Source: an uncultured Prochlorococcus sp. (GTDB lineage: Bacteria > Cyanobacteriota > Cyanobacteriia > PCC-6307 > Cyanobiaceae). Taken from it: DNA of 64,000 nucleotides. A program made the translations under genes and the position numbers. Position 1 is the first letter of the stretch. Every line of letters starts with the position of its first letter. This document shows positions 13,277 through 53,701 of the stretch, piece after piece. Where the stretch lies: assembly GCF_902622435.1 (NCBI RefSeq), contig NZ_CACNQB010000003.1. One strand, written 5' to 3'. Below the pieces are notes generated by a model. That model saw only the letters and a program-made list of their open reading frames with translations, did no database searches and was not told the DNA's origin.

Positions 13277-13375
13277 ATAGCATTTAGGAAGTGCTTAGCT
13301 GGTTAAATCGGTAATCTGAATTAACTAGTTCGTCATGAGCTTGCCTGTGGGATACTTGCAGGCTCTTTCAATTTT
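13277..13375 (+). ncRNA. Candidate ~95-nt sRNA with three hairpins
   Basis: TAAAAT -10 box at 13267; stems AGCATTT/AAGTGCT, AGCTGGTTAA/TTAACTAGTT and GAGCTTGC/GCAGGCTC followed by T-rich sequence. Confidence 0.55.
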
Positions 13376-19156: not shown

Positions 19157-19256
19157 TGCAGCTCCTTAACTTGCTCAAGTCCCCGTCCTATGGCTTGAGT
19201 CGTACTGCGGTCTATCAGATGGTAGATCGGACGATTTTGTAGTATTCACTACAATC
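19157..19256. ncRNA. Candidate structured RNA (~100 nt)
   Basis: About 47% GC by hand count, within AT-rich flanks; stems GCAG/CTGC, CTCAAG/CTTGAG, TCTATC/GGTAGA, TTGTAGT/ACTACAA. Confidence 0.5.
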
Positions 19257-21192: not shown

Positions 21193-21237
21193 ATAGAATA
21201 CTGTTTTTTTTGAGAAGCTAAAAAGCTAAAATAGACT

Positions 21238-21288
21238 GTGATTGACAGTCGATCTAAACTTAGAGGGATAAACCCCTCTTTTTTAATG
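21238..21288 (+). repeat. Island repeat module, copy 1
   Basis: GTGATTGACAGTCGATC-TAAACT-TAGAGGGATAAACCCCTCT-T tract-AATG. Confidence 0.9.
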
Positions 21289-25779: not shown

Positions 25780-26060
25780 AAAAGAAGTTAATGATTTATA
25801 AAAGTTTTTTTTATGAATGTCTTGTCAATCTTTATTTCAAGAAAAAGTATTTTTTAATGGCTTTTCAAGGACAAATATATTTATTTAACAACAGGTATAT
25901 TGAATTGGTAAAAAAGACTACTTAATTTGATTTATATAACTTATATAAAAAAGACTTCTATATAAGTTTCTCTACATAATTTAAGATTTAATTTATAAAA
26001 TTTAATAAGGAAAATATACATTGACAAACAATCTAAAATAATGGGCAATTAGCTCTTTTT

Positions 26061-26438
26061 TTAATAGCAAAGTACGCTATCCGCTTTAATTGATTCTTCA
26101 ACTAGAACATCTGGCATAACAAACTCTGCAGTATATCCATCTAGAAGCTTTTCATCGTAACCCCTAGATTTAGCAGACATTCCTGAGACATATATGGTAA
26201 TTTTTGAATTCTTTAAATTTTGAAGATGTTCGTATAAATCTCCAGTACCTTGACCAACTATTTCACCAGCTTTTTTGCAATTTAATATTTGTACTCCGTC
26301 TCCTGCTAGAAAAAGTGTTACTTTATGGTCGTTTTTTTCTGCAGTAAGGGCAACCAATAAACCTAAAGTTATTTTATTTTTGGATTCTAAACCGCTGTAA
26401 ATATGTACTAACACTGTATTGTCGGTAATGATAGACAT
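26061..26438 (-). CDS. DsrE family protein
   Basis: VTLFLAGDGV motif, GGAGG SD; the usual catalytic Cys position reads VSGMSAKSRG. Confidence 0.82.
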   Translation of the reverse strand: MSIITDNTVLVHIYSGLESKNKITLGLLVALTAEKNDHKVTLFLAGDGVQILNCKKAGEIVGQGTGDLYEHLQNLKNSKITIYVSGMSAKSRGYDEKLLDGYTAEFVMPDVLVEESIKADSVLCY

Positions 26439-26539
26439 TTAATCCTCCCTAAATTTTGTTTTTATATCTTAAATAAAATCTATTTTCATTAGATGTTTTT
26501 TTATGAAACGCTTACTACTTGTACCTCTATATTAATTAC

Positions 26540-26586
26540 GATTGACAGTCGATCTAAAATAAGGGGCATTAGCTCCTTTTTTAATG
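26540..26586 (+). repeat. Island repeat module, copy 2
   Basis: GATTGACAGTCGATC-TAAAAT-AAGGGGCATTAGCTCCTT-T tract-AATG (start of the DUF3804 gene). Confidence 0.85.
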
Positions 26587-26967
26587 TCAAACACTAAAGC
26601 CATAGAAGATTTAATTAATGGTTATGCAACCAGTGAAGATTCTTCTTTTCTAATACCAAACGTAACTGAGGATTTTTTAGCTGTAAGACCAAGTGGAAAT
26701 CCAATATCTGCTAAGGGATTAGTGGGAATGTTTGATAGTAAAGACTTAATTGCAGAATCATCAGAACTAATCAAAACCCACAAAATTGAAATTTACGGTG
26801 AGATAGCTTACGCAGTTTTTACTTTAAATGAAATCTTCAGTTATAAAGGAAATCAAAATAAAGATCTTTCAACTTATACTTGCATTTTTAAAAATGTAAA
26901 TGGTATTTGGAAGTATTCTTGGATGCAAAGATCTCAAGGCACTACTGATATGACCACATGGGAATAA
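26584..26967 (+). CDS. DUF3804 / SnoaL-NTF2-like protein
   Basis: AVRPSGNP and WMQRS motifs; paralog of 18186. Confidence 0.85.
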   Translation: MSNTKAIEDLINGYATSEDSSFLIPNVTEDFLAVRPSGNPISAKGLVGMFDSKDLIAESSELIKTHKIEIYGEIAYAVFTLNEIFSYKGNQNKDLSTYTCIFKNVNGIWKYSWMQRSQGTTDMTTWE

Positions 26968-27117
26968 ATGAAACGATTACTACTCCCACCACTGTTCAAA
27001 CTATTCAACAAAAGCACCTTCTTTTCGTCACTAAATCAAAATACCTGCCCTGTCTTGGATGCTGAAGAGATAAAAAAGCAAGAACAAAATGAAGCTATTA
27101 AAAAGTTATATCCATAA
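26968..27117 (+). CDS. 49-aa microprotein, duplicate A
   Basis: MKRLLLPPLFKLFNKSTFFSSLNQNTCPVLDAEEIKKQEQNEAIKKLYP; paralog at 30513. Confidence 0.75.
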   Translation: MKRLLLPPLFKLFNKSTFFSSLNQNTCPVLDAEEIKKQEQNEAIKKLYP

Positions 27118-27296
27118 AATTTAAACAGAAATTTCTTAGGTCATATTAAAAGCTTTTGAACGATCGTATATTCCCCATACCATCCATCACTTTCCTAAAT
27201 AGGAACTTTGCATGATAATTAATATATAAAAGCGAATAGTATGCTGATACATTCACGATTCGTTCACGATTTGCAATTTACTCCAAATCCTTTGAT

Positions 27297-27341
27297 ATGA
27301 CTAAAGAAAATTTTTGGATAATGAACCATGTACCAGCTTGA
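27297..27341 (+). pseudogene. 5' remnant of the EVE-domain gene
   Basis: MTKENFWIMNHVPA* versus MTEKNFWLMKSEP at 30830; upstream CCTTTGATATG versus CCCTTGATATG. Confidence 0.7.
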
Positions 27342-27442
27342 TATAACTAGGTTTTTTGAAATTTATAAATTTTATTCTAGCAAAATTCTAGCAACACTAA
27401 TAAATATAAAGCATCCATTGAGGTAAAGATTTAGGATAATTT

Positions 27443-27495
27443 GTGATTGACATTCGATCTAAACTTAGAGGGATAAAACCCTCTTTTTTTTGATG
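27443..27495 (+). repeat. Island repeat module, copy 3
   Basis: GTGATTGACATTCGATC-TAAACT-TAGAGGGATAAAACCCTCT-T tract-GATG. Confidence 0.9.
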
Positions 27496-27666
27496 AGAAA
27501 CAAATTTAAAAGATCAGCTTTTTTTGATATGTCTGATGACCTTTTCTATCGAATATCATTAATAGGATTTTTAGTTGTTTTTAGCTCAATGGTATTTTTC
27601 CTAACGAAATATAGAGAAAAAAAAGTTAATAATATAAGCCAGATTTCCATAACTGAACAAATTTAA
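27493..27666 (+). CDS. 57-aa single-TM microprotein
   Basis: MRNKFKRSAFFDMSDDLFYRISLIGFLVVFSSMVFFLTKYREKKVNNISQISITEQI. Confidence 0.6.
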   Translation: MRNKFKRSAFFDMSDDLFYRISLIGFLVVFSSMVFFLTKYREKKVNNISQISITEQI

Positions 27667-27680
27667 TTTATAAAGCAGTA

Positions 27681-28037
27681 ATGCAAAGATTTATAATTTC
27701 ACCGTTATTTGCTTTATCTAGGTTTTTTATAAATATTTACGGAATATTTTTAAAGTTTTTTCTTCAATTAAATGGTGGTTATTGGTCAAGAATTGGTTTA
27801 GCCGAAAATATTACAGAGGAAAGAATTAAAAAAAGAAGATTTTATATCCTGCCTTTTTATATTCTTCTAGCTTTATTGTTTGGATTACTATCTGCTCTAT
27901 ATTGGTATTTTGTTATTCTTCATGTGCCACTTTCAATAGAAAGATATTTAAGTCCATTGAATAACAATATTGCTTTAATAATTGCTTTTGCTACTTTCTT
28001 TGGTTGGCTTTATATTCTTTGTAAAACAAACAAATAA
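27681..28037 (+). CDS. Hypothetical membrane protein
   Basis: 118 aa with two or three hydrophobic segments. Confidence 0.75.
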   Translation: MQRFIISPLFALSRFFINIYGIFLKFFLQLNGGYWSRIGLAENITEERIKKRRFYILPFYILLALLFGLLSALYWYFVILHVPLSIERYLSPLNNNIALIIAFATFFGWLYILCKTNK

Positions 28038-28139
28038 AATGCTTACTGAGAGATGATGTGGTCCGCGGATTAAAGATTTAATTAATCATGATTAAATCAT
28101 TCTTAAGGATTCATGCAAAATATTTATGACCGATTAATT

Positions 28140-28452
28140 TGTATTTACGACAGTTCTGGTGATCGACTCGACCAAGGTTGACCAACTAGATCTTCACTAA
28201 TCCATGGTCTGCAACACCAAGGTAAATTAACTTATCTAACCTTTACGGTAAGAAAGTTAAGTGATCAGAAATTAATCTTTCGGGATTAATTCTGAACTAT
28301 CTTAAAAATAAAGTCGTTTGTAAAGCATGAAGAAGTGAGTAATCACTTTTACATTCAAAACTAATTTCTAAGAAAATTCTTAATCTGATTATTAAATAGA
28401 TCTCCTTTCTGTCGTCACCATTTAAAAAAGACCTGTAAAAGGGTCTTTTTTT
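28140..28452 (+). ncRNA. Candidate ~300-nt structured RNA
   Basis: GC-rich 5' part; hairpins at 28228-28259, 28266-28294 (UUCG loop) and 28333-28348 (GUAA loop); CTCCTTT at 28402; terminator; no ORF over 25 aa seen. Confidence 0.55.
28424..28452. terminator. Bidirectional intrinsic terminator
   Basis: AAAAAAGACCT-GTAAAA-GGGTCTTTTTTT. Confidence 0.85.
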
Positions 28453-28503
28453 ATGTCTTAAATTTTATTTATTTACTGTTAATCCACAAATAATTAAATA
28501 TTT

Positions 28504-28635
28504 TTATCTCGCTCTTTCGCGATCAGTTAATGCTTTTTCAAAAGTAAAAAAGAAAGTACAAATGCTATTCAATGCAACCAACAAAAGAACTACTGATCTT
28601 CCATGTTGATTTAATTGAAGTGATCTTTGAGTCAT
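28504..28635 (-). CDS. 43-aa single-TM microprotein
   Basis: Starts 4 nt after the previous stop; MTQRSLQLNQHGRSVVLLLVALNSICTFFFTFEKALTDRERAR. Confidence 0.6.
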   Translation of the reverse strand: MTQRSLQLNQHGRSVVLLLVALNSICTFFFTFEKALTDRERAR

Positions 28636-28639
28636 ACTT

Positions 28640-28822
28640 TTAATAATCTTCATTGTAATCGGATGGACTACCAGTTAAAGAACAAACAACTGATTCCTCT
28701 TTTTTCATTTCTTTTATTTCCATTATTGGTCTGCCCATTTTCTTAAGAACATCTATATCTTCTTTAGTCTGACAGCGTGCAATTATATTTCCTTTTTGAT
28801 CAAAGCAACTGTAGTAAGTCAT
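28640..28822 (-). CDS. 60-aa hypothetical protein
   Basis: ORF track; MTYYSCFDQKG...VVCSLTGSPSDYNEDY. Confidence 0.8.
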   Translation of the reverse strand: MTYYSCFDQKGNIIARCQTKEDIDVLKKMGRPIMEIKEMKKEESVVCSLTGSPSDYNEDY

Positions 28823-28846
28823 TTTATTAAATGCAATTTAACGTTC

Positions 28847-28892
28847 ATGGTTGATTTCAGTTGCAGCAACGCAACCGACTCATGACAACCAT
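28847..28892 (-). promoter_or_regulatory. Structured 5' leader candidate
   Basis: Outer stem ATGGTTG/CAACCAT enclosing inner stem TCGGTTGC/GCAACTGA, 25 nt upstream of the ATG at 28822. Confidence 0.5.
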
Positions 28893-29049
28893 ATTTCTAA
28901 TTTAGGTCAGCCATAGATTTAAATGGCTAAAAAAACATACCTCTTTCCGTACCTAAATGTTCCTCAAACCGCACACATTAGATACGCAGTGTTTTAGTCA
29001 AATCAATTAGAAAAAAGAGGTAGTTAAACGAATATACAAAGGAGAATTT

Positions 29050-29187
29050 ATGAGTGGAGATTTTGAGACTCTTGAAATTAATCAACCAAAAATTAAATAT
29101 TTAAAACCAGAAGATAATACAAAATGGTTAGACAAATTAATTAATAATATTAAGGACATGAAGAGGAAGATATCAAAAGATTCTTAG
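29050..29187 (+). CDS. 45-aa microprotein (NNTxWLDxLIN family)
   Basis: GGAG SD; MSGDFETLEINQPKIKYLKPEDNTKWLDKLINNIKDMKRKISKDS. Confidence 0.7.
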   Translation: MSGDFETLEINQPKIKYLKPEDNTKWLDKLINNIKDMKRKISKDS

Positions 29188-29321
29188 AAATTTAAGAAAG
29201 AAACATTTTTATTTGACCTTTAGTTTGAATGAAAAGAAATTCAAAAAAGAATTTAAATTTTGTATTTAAGGTAACCGCTTTTTTGTGAGCATTATTCAGA
29301 ATAAGAGTCCGACTATTTTTT

Positions 29322-29465
29322 ATGCAAAAAAATTTAGATGAAAATTCTTATGAAAAAAGAATTGAAAATATAGAAAAAGGAAAATCTTATTTAAAAAGTA
29401 ATGGATTTTTCAAATCAAAATCTAATCTTTTCGAAGACATACAAAGATTTATCTATAAAAGGTAA
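29322..29465 (+). CDS. 47-aa hypothetical protein
   Basis: MQKNLDENSYEKRIENIEKGKSYLKSNGFFKSKSNLFEDIQRFIYKR. Confidence 0.5.
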   Translation: MQKNLDENSYEKRIENIEKGKSYLKSNGFFKSKSNLFEDIQRFIYKR

Positions 29466-29480
29466 TTTAAAAAATATTTT

Positions 29481-29573
29481 TTACTTTTGATTAATTAAAT
29501 CTCTCCATAAGCAAGCCATCACATAAAAGAAAGAAAGACTTGAAAAGGTAAAGAGAAAAAAAGAATGGGTCAA
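29481..29573 (-). CDS. 30-aa TM microprotein (WRDL family, TTG start)
   Basis: MTHSFFLFTFSSLSFFYVMACLWRDLINQK; similar to 4882-4977. Confidence 0.55.
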   Translation of the reverse strand: MTHSFFLFTFSSLSFFYVMACLWRDLINQK

Positions 29574-29583
29574 TTTTCTATAA

Positions 29584-29688
29584 CTAAATTAGACCAAATA
29601 ATCCTGCAGTAAAACCAACAGCCGAAAAGAATGTGAACTCAATCAAATCTCTTGGGGCAGAGTTCATAAATAAACCAATTTGAGTCAT
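29584..29688 (-). CDS. 34-aa TM microprotein
   Basis: MTQIGLFMNSAPRDLIEFTFFSAVGFTAGLFGLI; starts 4 nt after the previous stop. Confidence 0.65.
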   Translation of the reverse strand: MTQIGLFMNSAPRDLIEFTFFSAVGFTAGLFGLI

Positions 29689-29692
29689 GATT

Positions 29693-29887
29693 TTATGACT
29701 TGAGAGAATCTTTTAAATCAAACTTTTCAGCTTTTTCAATTTGACACTCAGTATCATCTTCAGCACATTTGATTTCAGCTTTTTTGTTCATGTGGCTACT
29801 ACAACCGCCTGCTATAACTGGTAAACCGGTCGTAGCCGTAAAACCAGTTAAACATGCAAAAGCTATATAAGGAAAAAGTCTTTTCAT
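29693..29887 (-). CDS. 64-aa exported Cys-containing protein
   Basis: Signal-like MKRLFPYIAFACLTGFTA followed by GGCSSH..CAEDDTEC. Confidence 0.8.
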   Translation of the reverse strand: MKRLFPYIAFACLTGFTATTGLPVIAGGCSSHMNKKAEIKCAEDDTECQIEKAEKFDLKDSLKS

Positions 29888-29890
29888 TTA

Positions 29891-29908
29891 ATTGTTACTT
29901 TATGTAAA
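29891..29908 (-). promoter_or_regulatory. HLR1-like direct repeat
   Basis: TTTACATA-AA-GTAACAAT (one mismatch) just upstream of the ATG at 29887. Confidence 0.55.
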
Positions 29909-30088
29909 TTTATTATGTTACATAAAAAGCTCAAGTGTGAGTAGCTGATAATTCGCGTGCACCCTATACCAATCATCTAAAGTGATTTAGCAAACCTATG
30001 AGTTTTATATTTATCTGAGTATTTTTACTTATATGTTGAGTTGAAGACTTTAAATAATTAATGTTTGTTTTGGGTTTATATATAAGTA

Positions 30089-30244
30089 ATGGATAAAGAA
30101 CATTTAATTGATTTAATATCTAGCAGCATTATTTCTGAGATTAAAGATCTCCAAATTAATGAGCAAAAATTGATTGCAAATAATTATTTAAATAATCTGA
30201 ATTTAAATCAGCTTAGAATAATTTCTAAAGAATTTATTTTGTAA
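30089..30244 (+). CDS. 51-aa hypothetical protein (MDKxHLIDLIS family)
   Basis: Same length and termini as 6466-6621. Confidence 0.75.
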   Translation: MDKEHLIDLISSSIISEIKDLQINEQKLIANNYLNNLNLNQLRIISKEFIL

Positions 30245-30326
30245 TTTTTATTGAATATTTATTTAAATAAATGAGATTTTCTTTACTATCATTTGAATTT
30301 GAATAAGTTAATACCTTTTAATTAAT

Positions 30327-30512
30327 ATGAATGATTCAGAAGAATTTAAACCTAGCCTTAAACAAATAAATGAGGATATCAGACCTACATGGGAAGATAT
30401 CAAAAAACAATCAGAAGTTTTAGTTAACAAACTTGGTTGCCCTAGATCATTTGTAGGAGGGATGCTTCATGCAATAGCAAGCGACTTCTCTGATATGAAA
30501 ACTTGGGAATAA
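30327..30512 (+). CDS. 61-aa hypothetical protein ending in a DUF3804-like DMKTWE tail
   Basis: ORF track; last six codons match the end of the 26584 gene. Confidence 0.75.
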   Translation: MNDSEEFKPSLKQINEDIRPTWEDIKKQSEVLVNKLGCPRSFVGGMLHAIASDFSDMKTWE

Positions 30513-30662
30513 ATGAAAAACTTGTTACTTACACCACTTTTCAAACTATTCAAAAAAAGCACTTTTCTCTTATCACTAAATCAAAACTCGTGCCCTGTTT
30601 TATATGCTGAAGACATAAAAAAGCAAGAACAGAAAGAAGCTATTGAAAGGTTGTACCCGTAA
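30513..30662 (+). CDS. 49-aa microprotein, duplicate B
   Basis: MKNLLLTPLFKLFKKSTFLLSLNQNSCPVLYAEDIKKQEQKEAIERLYP. Confidence 0.75.
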   Translation: MKNLLLTPLFKLFKKSTFLLSLNQNSCPVLYAEDIKKQEQKEAIERLYP

Positions 30663-30666
30663 ACTT

Positions 30667-30732
30667 TTAACAGAAATGTATCAGATCATATATACGATGC
30701 AGCACGGTCCTATGCACCCCCATGCCACCCAT
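30667..30732 (-). CDS. Candidate 21-aa peptide
   Basis: AGGAAAG SD; MGGMGVHRTVLHRIYDLIHFC; a homologous frame exists in duplicate A. Confidence 0.4.
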   Translation of the reverse strand: MGGMGVHRTVLHRIYDLIHFC

Positions 30733-30829
30733 TACTTTCCTAAATTGTGACTTTGATGGATAATAAACATATAAAAAAAATCTGATTCTAGCAAAATTCT
30801 AGCAGATAAATTCCTTCAATTCCCTTGAT

Positions 30830-31288
30830 ATGACTGAAAAAAATTTTTGGCTAATGAAAAGTGAGCCTGATGCTTACAGCATAGATACTTTAAAAAATGA
30901 CGGTGTAACTTTATGGGATGGAATAAGAAATTATCAGGCTCGAAATTTTATGAGAAAAATGAATAAAGGAGATAAAGTTTTTTTCTATCATTCGAATTGT
31001 AAACCCCCTGGTATTGTGGGACTTATGGAGGTAATAGATCTAAATATTGTTGATCCTACTCAATTTGATCAAGATTCAAAATATTTTGATCCAAAATCGA
31101 AACCTGATAATCCTAGATGGGATTGCGTAAAAGTAAAATACATTTCTAAATCAAATAAGATTTTAAGTTTACCTGAATTGAAGATTTTATTTAATGAAGA
31201 CGAGTTATTAGTTGTAAAAAAAGGAAATAGGTTGTCTATATTACCTGTCAGAAATGATATTGCAAAAGTACTACTAGAAAAAATATAA
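30830..31288 (+). CDS. EVE domain protein
   Basis: FWLMKSEP, WDGIRNYQARNFMRKM..GD..FFYHSNCKPPGIVG. Confidence 0.95.
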   Translation: MTEKNFWLMKSEPDAYSIDTLKNDGVTLWDGIRNYQARNFMRKMNKGDKVFFYHSNCKPPGIVGLMEVIDLNIVDPTQFDQDSKYFDPKSKPDNPRWDCVKVKYISKSNKILSLPELKILFNEDELLVVKKGNRLSILPVRNDIAKVLLEKI

Positions 31289-53582: not shown

Positions 53583-53645
53583 ATTCACGCTTGGACATCC
53601 TTTCTTTTAAGAATGGGTCTGATATATTCAGACCTACGCGATTAG
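53583..53645 (-). ncRNA. ATPC-type cis-regulatory RNA between subunit a and c genes
   Basis: Perfect GGTCTGA/TCAGACC stem plus CATTC/GGATG and CGC/GCG stems; this position is where the ATPC RNA motif is described in Prochlorococcus. Confidence 0.75.
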
Positions 53646-53701
53646 ATATTTTGCCAGATTACAGACTCTTTGTAAAAGCGTCTGAATGTATTAGAAGACG
53701 G

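Follow-up and report, generated by a model that had tools for sequence, protein, structure and literature searches.

Tycheposons and 'cryptic' integrase elements have been described from the genomic islands of Prochlorococcus (Hackl et al., bioRxiv 10.1101/2020.12.28.424599; Cell 2023). In the model set out in the preprint, elements with a tyrosine integrase enter a single proximal island site, and newcomers push older elements inward. The parts of that text available to us also state that insertion leaves partial target copies, degraded elements and integrase fragments, that the integrase is inward-facing at one end of the element, and that heterogeneity peaks beside the anchor. Seven transfer RNA (tRNA) or transfer-messenger RNA (tmRNA) anchors are listed there; 'non-tRNA-associated' recombinases occur in these parts only as a label in a tree, and the EVE gene is not mentioned in them (bioRxiv 10.1101/2020.12.28.424599). 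Here, we analyze a window of 64,000 nucleotides (nt) from an uncultured Prochlorococcus sp. (RefSeq assembly GCF_902622435.1, contig NZ_CACNQB010000003.1), which is C3:114533-178532 in a genome of 1.52 Mb and 18 contigs, with high-light Prochlorococcus isolates and single cells as its nearest relatives. In this window, the 5' end of a core EVE-domain gene, within its first ten codons, is very likely the chromosomal attachment (att) site for a family of site-specific integrative elements, and the region at 26.5-30.9 kb is, with the same likelihood, a two-layer insertion stack.

These EVE elements are like tycheposons in organism and in the additive model, and they also have an inward-facing integrase and leave stubs of the target. 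They differ in the anchor, which is a tRNA or tmRNA in the available preprint text; the att site of the EVE elements lies in codons 7-10 of EVE. The replication hallmarks of tycheposons (primase, helicase, polymerase) were not found in the EVE elements examined (locus L080 and the L137 circle, see below), where Pfam and PHROGs together recognized only an integrase, an RHH/RepB-like protein and a zinc ribbon. With only the integrase and the RHH/RepB-like protein, the EVE elements are nearer to the 'cryptic' class of the preprint; their matched arm repeats and co-varying integrase N-terminal domain are not described in the available text. The data support the view that the same additive island model operates at the start of a protein-coding gene, probably with an integrase lineage of its own, as a variant of the tycheposon-type model.

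The SXT/R391 integrative and conjugative elements reportedly integrate at the 5' end of prfC. Their tyrosine integrase is said to target the first codons of this conserved gene, and the element to provide a new promoter and a new 5' coding end, which leaves the gene intact. By analogy with this case, the EVE elements would likewise insert at the 5' end of a gene and restore it. SXT is, however, reportedly a conjugative element of about 100 kb with another target and another integrase lineage, and is not said to form serial stacks of 1-10 kb elements.

Coordinates below are window positions, and the features of the stack other than the cargo region are on the plus strand. The intact EVE gene (30830-31288) matches PF01878 with an E-value of 1.5e-52 over profile positions 1-144 of 145, and its att core, TGGCTAATGAA, lies at 30848-30858 (codons 7-10). 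Upstream of it is a stub of the same gene (stub A, ATG at 27297, TGA to 27341) with 14 codons (MTKENFWIMNHVPA followed by a stop) and the att core TGGATAATGAA at 27315-27325; an earlier sequence-only reading of this DNA had noticed the truncation, correctly. As a population sample, 80 loci were retrieved around EVE orthologs (L numbers below), and 80 intact EVE genes and 47 stubs from them were compared, anchored on TGGCTAATGAA. Among the EVE genes, the majority-base fraction lies at 0.5-0.8 ahead of the motif, rises to 1.00 within it and does not fall below 0.95 downstream. The stubs agree with the EVE consensus at about 1.0 across the 11-12 nt core, at about 0.5 from +11 and at random level beyond +25. 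No intact EVE gene and no stub lacks this 11-nt core. Ahead of WLMK, the EVE N-termini differ (MTEINYW, MTEENFW, MTEKNFW, MVQQEPSYW), and the stub tails past the core fall into a few recurrent classes. The sharp conservation step at TGGCTAATGAA argues for crossover at a fixed core and not at scattered breakpoints, and EVE sequence 5' of the core would come from the element. In the window, the stub core and the EVE core flank the inserted DNA as direct repeats. The post-core tail of stub A (CCATGTACCAGCTTGATATAACTAGG) is homologous to the P' arm that adjoins the integrase gene in L103, L128 and L129, and stub A is a predicted hybrid junction of the attL type.

A comparison of this boundary across strains, which the sequence-only reading had named as a check, bore its proposal out: in addition to the 47 stubs in the 80 loci, the EVE 5' unit (30718-30874) is present in 86 of the 93 near-complete genomes of the genus, about 60 of which have at least two matches. 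Same-strand arrays reach 8-9 copies in 15-22 kb (G044, G006), and arrays are also found in the closed genomes MIT 9201, MIT 9314, MIT 9302 and MIT 9107 (L038, L044, L070, L071).

The stubs are accompanied by a dedicated integrase family. In L080, an open reading frame (ORF) of 526 amino acids (aa) (L080:471-2048) begins 89 nt past a stub, and such a stub precedes the integrase gene by 80-120 nt in nine of the nine loci with usable flank (L080, L098, L103, L126, L127, L128, L129, L130 and L132; eight full-length copies and, in L132, an N-terminal fragment). Where the flank reaches far enough, an intact EVE gene in the same orientation is found 5.5-10 kb downstream of the integrase. Across 285 genomes of the genus, the family is full-length in 8-9 and fragmentary in about a dozen. 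We predict that it is a tyrosine recombinase. Direct matches to PF00589 are weak (E-values of 1e-3 and 6.5e-5; 19-23 bits versus a cut-off of 27.1), many of 177 homologs have a precomputed PF00589 match, and one UniRef name reads 'Tyr recombinase domain-containing protein'. The family profile matches the core-binding domain of the integrase in PDB 3nrw (E-value 2.8e-5); only this deeper profile reached 3nrw, and searches of PDB sequences with a single protein or a shallow profile gave nothing useful. K377, YxxR462, G(H/N)485 and Y494 are conserved. R317, located 19 residues past a GMSPEE motif, is also invariant in the family. The family is 16% identical to the genome's own 500-aa integrase. 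PHROGs assigned no function to the integrase, to p61 and p49 (see below) or to the cargo, and a scan of IMG/VR with the integrase alignment gave no relative.

An 8-10-mer repeated in tandem, with an 11-bp period, flanks the core on either side, and within each element the tandem is the same on the two sides. The tandem of the P' arm lies about 45-65 nt past the core, just before the integrase gene, and that of the P arm about 45-65 nt before the EVE ATG. The repeat, present twice each time, is CATACCAGCA in L126-L128 (matched at both ends, TACCAGCA), TTATCCAAAC in L080 and GTCCACAC in L130 (both matched at both ends), and TTTACCCAAAC in L098 and in the circle; the window element has TTCTAGCA arms, matched at both ends. 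Over their N-terminal 75 residues, integrases of the same arm type have 84-100% identity and those of different types 37-45%, and residues 216-526 hold at 76-91% identity. Because N-terminal identity co-varies with the repeat, we infer that the tandems are putative arm-type integrase-binding sites, which would be read by the N-terminal domain. Lambda-type integrases likewise consist of an N-terminal extension with core-binding and catalytic domains, and their direct-repeat sites are on P and P' arms. In the EVE elements, by comparison, it is co-variation that suggests arm binding, the repeats are strict tandem pairs with the 11-bp period, and no Xis or IHF partners were identified.

An integrase homolog 86% identical to that of L080 (P0040) occurs on three metagenome contigs from different assemblies (L137, L138 and L139). 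These contigs are circular permutations, with terminal overlaps equal to the assembler k (127, 55), and represent a circle of about 8.51 kb. Its attP consists of TTTACCCAAAC twice, 27 nt, ATGACAGAATGTAACTAC-TGGCTAATGAA, a tail, TTTACCCAAAC twice and the integrase gene, and there is no EVE body.

We propose that a circular element recombines with EVE at the core. The P arm of the element, its ATG and its first six codons would become the new EVE 5' end (attR), and the old EVE 5' end, now fused to the element's P' arm, would be left as a stub (attL) and pushed upstream. Stub A would then be the attL of the newest element (27326-30847, TTCTAGCA arms), and the DUF3804 gene, p49A and spacer A described below would be what survives of an older element with TTCACGAT arms, namely its right end. 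The stack would have been reshuffled by secondary recombination at the D2 repeats, at MKRLLL-type gene starts and at a tail graft between p61 and DUF3804. The element may also supply the EVE promoter, as its position suggests; a consensus promoter scan of the spacers found none in copy A or copy B. Serial integration at the EVE start, with a protein-coding gene as anchor, had already been proposed in the sequence-only reading, and the population data, the dedicated integrase family and the circular attP form all agree with it.

The newest layer is delimited by a 19-nt tandem, TTCTAGCAAAATTCTAGCA, which has exactly two occurrences in the 1.5-Mb genome (27375-27393 and 30786-30804) and brackets the DNA between stub and EVE. 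The first copy can be aligned to the P' arm repeats that autonomous elements carry; the second occupies the P arm position. The P' arm of this integrase-less element spans 27326-27393, with the tandem TTCTAGCAaaaTTCTAGCA (27375-27393) at its end. In L103 and L126-L128, a CATACCAGCAnCATACCAGCA tandem stands ahead of the integrase gene, and the arm lines up with this tandem column by column. Since TTCTAGCAAAATTCTAGCA is found only at the two arm positions, 27326-30847 is predicted to be one element of 3.5 kb, bounded by the stub (attL) and EVE (attR). Its cargo (27490-30244) consists of small ORFs of 58, 118 (membrane), 60, 45, 47, 64 and 51 aa. The usual place of the integrase gene is taken by a D2 repeat and this small-ORF cargo, and the element has either lost its integrase or never had one. 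As the genome has no integrase homologue of this family, the element would be fixed here unless an integrase is supplied in trans. The same integrase-less layout is seen in L010, L048, L060, L075, L133 and about 18 metagenome stretches. One metagenome stretch with the TTCTAGCA repeat (L164) has an RHH-like gene and no integrase. In L030 (2262-2400), an 'empty' element leads from the TTCTAGCA P' arm directly into the P arm and the next EVE start, a layout as expected if cargo had been deleted by recombination between the two arm repeats.

The module at 27443-30829 (about 3.4 kb) is 94-99% identical in 12 other genomes that have at least 2 kb of it, versus only 85-94.5% for the adjacent 3.2 kb of core genes. 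In each of the 12, similarity to the window is higher for the module than for the core next to it (e.g., 97.7% versus 86.8% and 97.5% versus 84.7%), which argues for horizontal spread. It is sometimes next to EVE and sometimes displaced by other DNA. The distal island DNA (about 21.0-26.06 kb) is widely shared, and the EVE-proximal part varies from genome to genome. The cargo beside EVE in other genomes includes a NucS/MrcB-like nuclease (L084:4972-5877), a Schlafen-type helicase (L019:2111-4087) and a T5orf172/GIY-YIG-like protein (L057:4881-5924), which look like defense genes.

The sequence-only reading described the right end of the island as duplicated 3.5 kb upstream. The repeat is real: 26945-27341 (copy A) and 30490-30874 (copy B) are about 78-81% identical overall, direct, on the same strand and 3.5 kb apart, with a blastn E-value of 2e-67 against the whole genome. 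A repeat search returned three blocks (26945-27146/30490-30691, 202 nt, 81%; 27173-27231/30718-30776, 59 nt, 81%; 27275-27325/30808-30858, 51 nt, 84%), and in the MAFFT alignment, homology sets in at CTGATATGA and ends at AATGAA. Both copies have the same order: the last codons of the upstream gene (DM[T/K]TWE, TAA), a 49-aa ORF directly adjoining them, about 170 nt of spacer and the EVE start. Homology begins six codons inside two unrelated genes, as that reading had stated, one being DUF3804 (PF12707) and the other a 61-aa ORF without Pfam match. The word 'duplicated' is, however, misleading. The two 49-aa paralogs, p49A (26968-27117) and p49B (30513-30662), have a synonymous divergence (dS) of about 1, so A and B are old paralogues and no fresh duplication, and they derive from different element lineages, with TTCACGAT versus TTCTAGCA arm repeats.

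A third copy in the genome (C15:6426-6795) comprises a 131-aa membrane gene, a p49 with TTG start, a spacer and a longer stub (MTEEKFCLMKSELDAKKYS followed by a stop). It is near the end of a 7.2-kb contig (locus L006) for which the contiguous window leaves no room, and represents either a second location in the genome or another haplotype of the island. The fourth p49 copy (C1:54214-54369) has only a 167-aa gene and a p49 with GTG start. All four p49 genes are intact, with a ratio of nonsynonymous to synonymous divergence (dN/dS) of 0.07-0.25 at dS 0.6-2.7, and p49 is therefore considered a real gene. The fourth copy is in a second island (C1:48000-62000, L007) that also holds a DUF3804 paralog with the C-terminus DLSLWD, a fragment resembling a tRNA and a tyrosine integrase of 359 aa (C1:48149-48616).

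Spacer A (27118-27296) is the P-arm side of the older element, in which a block at 27173-27231 is conserved and the tandem TTCACGATtcgTTCACGAT occupies 27252-27269; spacer B (30663-30829) is the P arm of the newest element, with the corresponding block at 30718-30776 and the tandem TTCTAGCAaaaTTCTAGCA at 30786-30804. The tandem of spacer A (TTCACGAT twice) is found elsewhere in the attL of L127 and in L140, and as P' arm in L082. Since tandems of this type are known elsewhere as both P and P' arm, DUF3804, p49A and spacer A are taken as the right end of an older element. In the genome, this tandem has a single occurrence, which indicates that the left end of this element has been lost. The block CCCCATnCCAnCCATnACTTTCCTAAAT..TTTGATGGATAAT common to both spacers (27173-27231, 30718-30776) is kept at about 81% though synonymous sites are saturated between the copies, and the minus strand of both blocks encodes FRKVM(D/G)GMG. 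It is missing from the P arms of integrase-bearing elements and is therefore not needed for att function.

The DUF3804 gene (26584-26967, 127 aa, ending TDMTTWE) belongs to the cargo of the older element, at its right end. The gene matches PF12707 over profile positions 1-128 of 128 (E-value 7e-51), so its tail is native; orthologs with 97-98% identity in nine other loci end in DMTTWE or DMKTWE, in line with the earlier suggestion that DMxTWE fits DUF3804. The 61-aa gene p61 (30327-30512, no Pfam match, graft junction at 30490-30495) ends in five codons, MKTWE, that trace, together with the stop, to the DUF3804 3' end. The p61-p49 pair is found in 20 of the 80 loci, from 170 nt to 5.4 kb upstream of EVE, with p61 95-100% identical including the tail. 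These close orthologs all end in DMKTWE or a one-base frameshift thereof, which taken literally is the ending that the sequence-only reading had named as refuting its proposal, yet more distant homologs (66-80% identity) end otherwise, in SDFSDKEI, SDFSDK, SDFSETKDL or similar; none has MKTWE, and downstream of them there is no p49 but an unrelated spacer of about 160 nt. Their nucleotide homology to the window ends at 30493-30495, and homology to the DUF3804 copy begins at 30490. The DMKTWE allele of DUF3804 found elsewhere shares 29 identical nt with the p61 tail and p49 start (CTGATATGAAAACTTGGGAATAAATGAAA). The switch in homology and the alternative p61 ends argue that p61 took MKTWE, stop and p49 from the 3' end of DUF3804. 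The chimera with a DUF3804 tail postulated in the sequence-only reading is thus retained, not as an event in this genome but as an old graft that, by all indications, predates the divergence of the close clade and is carried along with the module. In L047 (533-706) and L048 (5490-5663), p61 ends in DMKLGNK with a shifted stop, and the ORF overlaps the p49 start; a different native tail was considered and rejected, as both carry one-base deletions in the A-run of the grafted tail. A 610-nt ENA contig (P0004) has a 104-aa ORF in which EVE residues 1-42 are joined directly to full-length p61, explained either by another rearrangement at this site or by chimeric assembly. Breakpoints of a similar kind are found again at about 25 nt into p49 and into other gene starts of the MKRLLL type.

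D2 repeats are located in the window at 26010-26061, 26531-26582 (copy 2), 27436-27487 (copy 3) and about 21237-21284, and in the own genome also on C1 and C4. The module consists of a near-palindrome GATTGACAnTCGATC, TAAA and a hairpin with T-run, and it ends just ahead of a start codon; copy 2 has the near-palindrome GATTGACAGTCGATC, hairpin and T-run. Copy 3, 95 nt past the stub stop and thus where the sequence-only reading had put it (about 100 nt after the stub), occupies the site where the integrase gene of autonomous relatives begins. D2 follows the TTCTAGCA P' arm in L010, L048, L060, L133 and about 15 metagenome stretches; in other genomes and metagenomes, it always comes after this arm. 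In the window, it brackets single cassettes (DsrE; DUF3804-p49A-stub). D2 may mark another type of cassette border, or may act as a 5' leader. Copies 2 and 3 are the left and right brackets of a 905-nt indel: in L017, L025 and L072, the piece 26522-27442 is absent and 26521 is joined straight to 27443.

Several points weigh against integration at EVE by this integrase family. The window, including 27326-30847, contains no recombinase, and the genome has no homologue of the 526-aa family. Searches of the 80 genome loci and of 29 metagenome stretches with the exact arm repeat yielded no autonomous TTCTAGCA-type element, so mobilization of the window element stays putative. Box I of the integrase reads GMSPEE (residues 296-301 in L080) family-wide, with the canonical arginine apparently missing, and an AlphaFold2 model built from a seven-sequence alignment (pLDDT 48, pTM 0.27) was too poor to be used. 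Many consecutive att pairs lack matched arms, and contigs that look circular could in principle also arise from identical copies in tandem. The 905-nt indel between D2 repeats, finally, indicates that homologous or illegitimate recombination also shapes the region. Such recombination might even account for the whole array, if foreign DNA had been taken up and joined through short shared modules (the EVE 5' end, p49 and MKRLLL gene starts, D2 repeats) without a site-specific integrase, and integrase elements were only occasional passengers. The indel, the genome without an integrase of the family, the repeated breakpoints at MKRLLL-type starts and at the p61/DUF3804 tail, the fusion of P' and P arms through the TTCTAGCA repeat in L030, and the fact that most of the island is not element DNA would all fit. 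We nevertheless consider this unlikely: the 11-nt core boundary is sharp and common to 47 stubs, the integrase gene is beside the stub in nine of nine cases, a circular attP form exists, and the arm repeats agree between the two ends of an element, with the N-terminal domain of the integrase co-varying.

Two simpler explanations concern the repeat itself. Two co-linear copies on the same strand, 3.5 kb apart, are what a segmental duplication of the EVE upstream region in this lineage, followed by divergence and without any mobile element, would leave behind. Such an origin is very improbable, for p49A and p49B differ by a dS of about 1.0, yet each copy is 94-99% identical in other genomes, in other positions and orders; a third copy is on another contig, the arm repeats are unlike between the copies, and the same stubs recur in about 60 genomes. 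That repeats were collapsed or mis-joined in a draft of 18 contigs, one copy being near the end of a 7-kb contig, is less probable still, given that the window is contiguous on a 209-kb contig and that the closed genomes MIT 9201, MIT 9314, MIT 9302 and MIT 9107 have the same arrays. Site-specific integration at the EVE core, overlaid by secondary recombination, is hence preferred.

With respect to the surroundings, flexible genes occupy the window from 1 to about 30.8 kb, and core genes follow from EVE rightwards (DUF2811, DUF1818, an Hsp70-like gene and others). GC content is 25-30% across the initial 34 kb. ARAGORN found no tRNA or tmRNA in the 64-kb window. Rfam matches at gathering score in the window are a Yfr20 small RNA (13278-13364), a glutamine-II riboswitch (19174-19236, minus strand) and an ATPC motif (53586-53676, minus strand); no family was reported at the att unit or the D2 repeat.

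The array is like an integron in being a one-directional stack of short, mostly promoter-less cassettes at a fixed site, many without a recombinase of their own. It differs in that IntI, attI and attC hairpins are missing, that the EVE 5' end is copied at the cassette borders, and that Rfam detects nothing there. We tentatively speculate, while thinking it less likely to be right than wrong, that an integrase lineage with a fixed 11-nt core in a core protein gene has split into orthogonal specificity groups of arm and N-terminal domain, so that its elements leave a mixed stack without disturbing their neighbors. Integrase-less cassettes with matched arms, such as the window's TTCTAGCA element, might then be mobilized in trans, in an integron-like exchange that rewrites the EVE promoter and N-terminus with each insertion.

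Prochlorococcus islands carry most of the flexible genes, and the current model ties their growth to seven tRNA/tmRNA sites. The EVE site provides a compact and testable system, with an 11-nt core, matched and co-varying arms, an 8.5-kb circle and many integrase-less derivatives. Integration at this site explains strain differences in the EVE N-terminus and its upstream region, the grafted ends of small island genes, and identical 3.4-kb modules in backgrounds whose core genes are 6-15% different. If cassettes at EVE are indeed mobilized in trans, they would constitute a gene-anchored exchange system in the ocean's most abundant phototroph.

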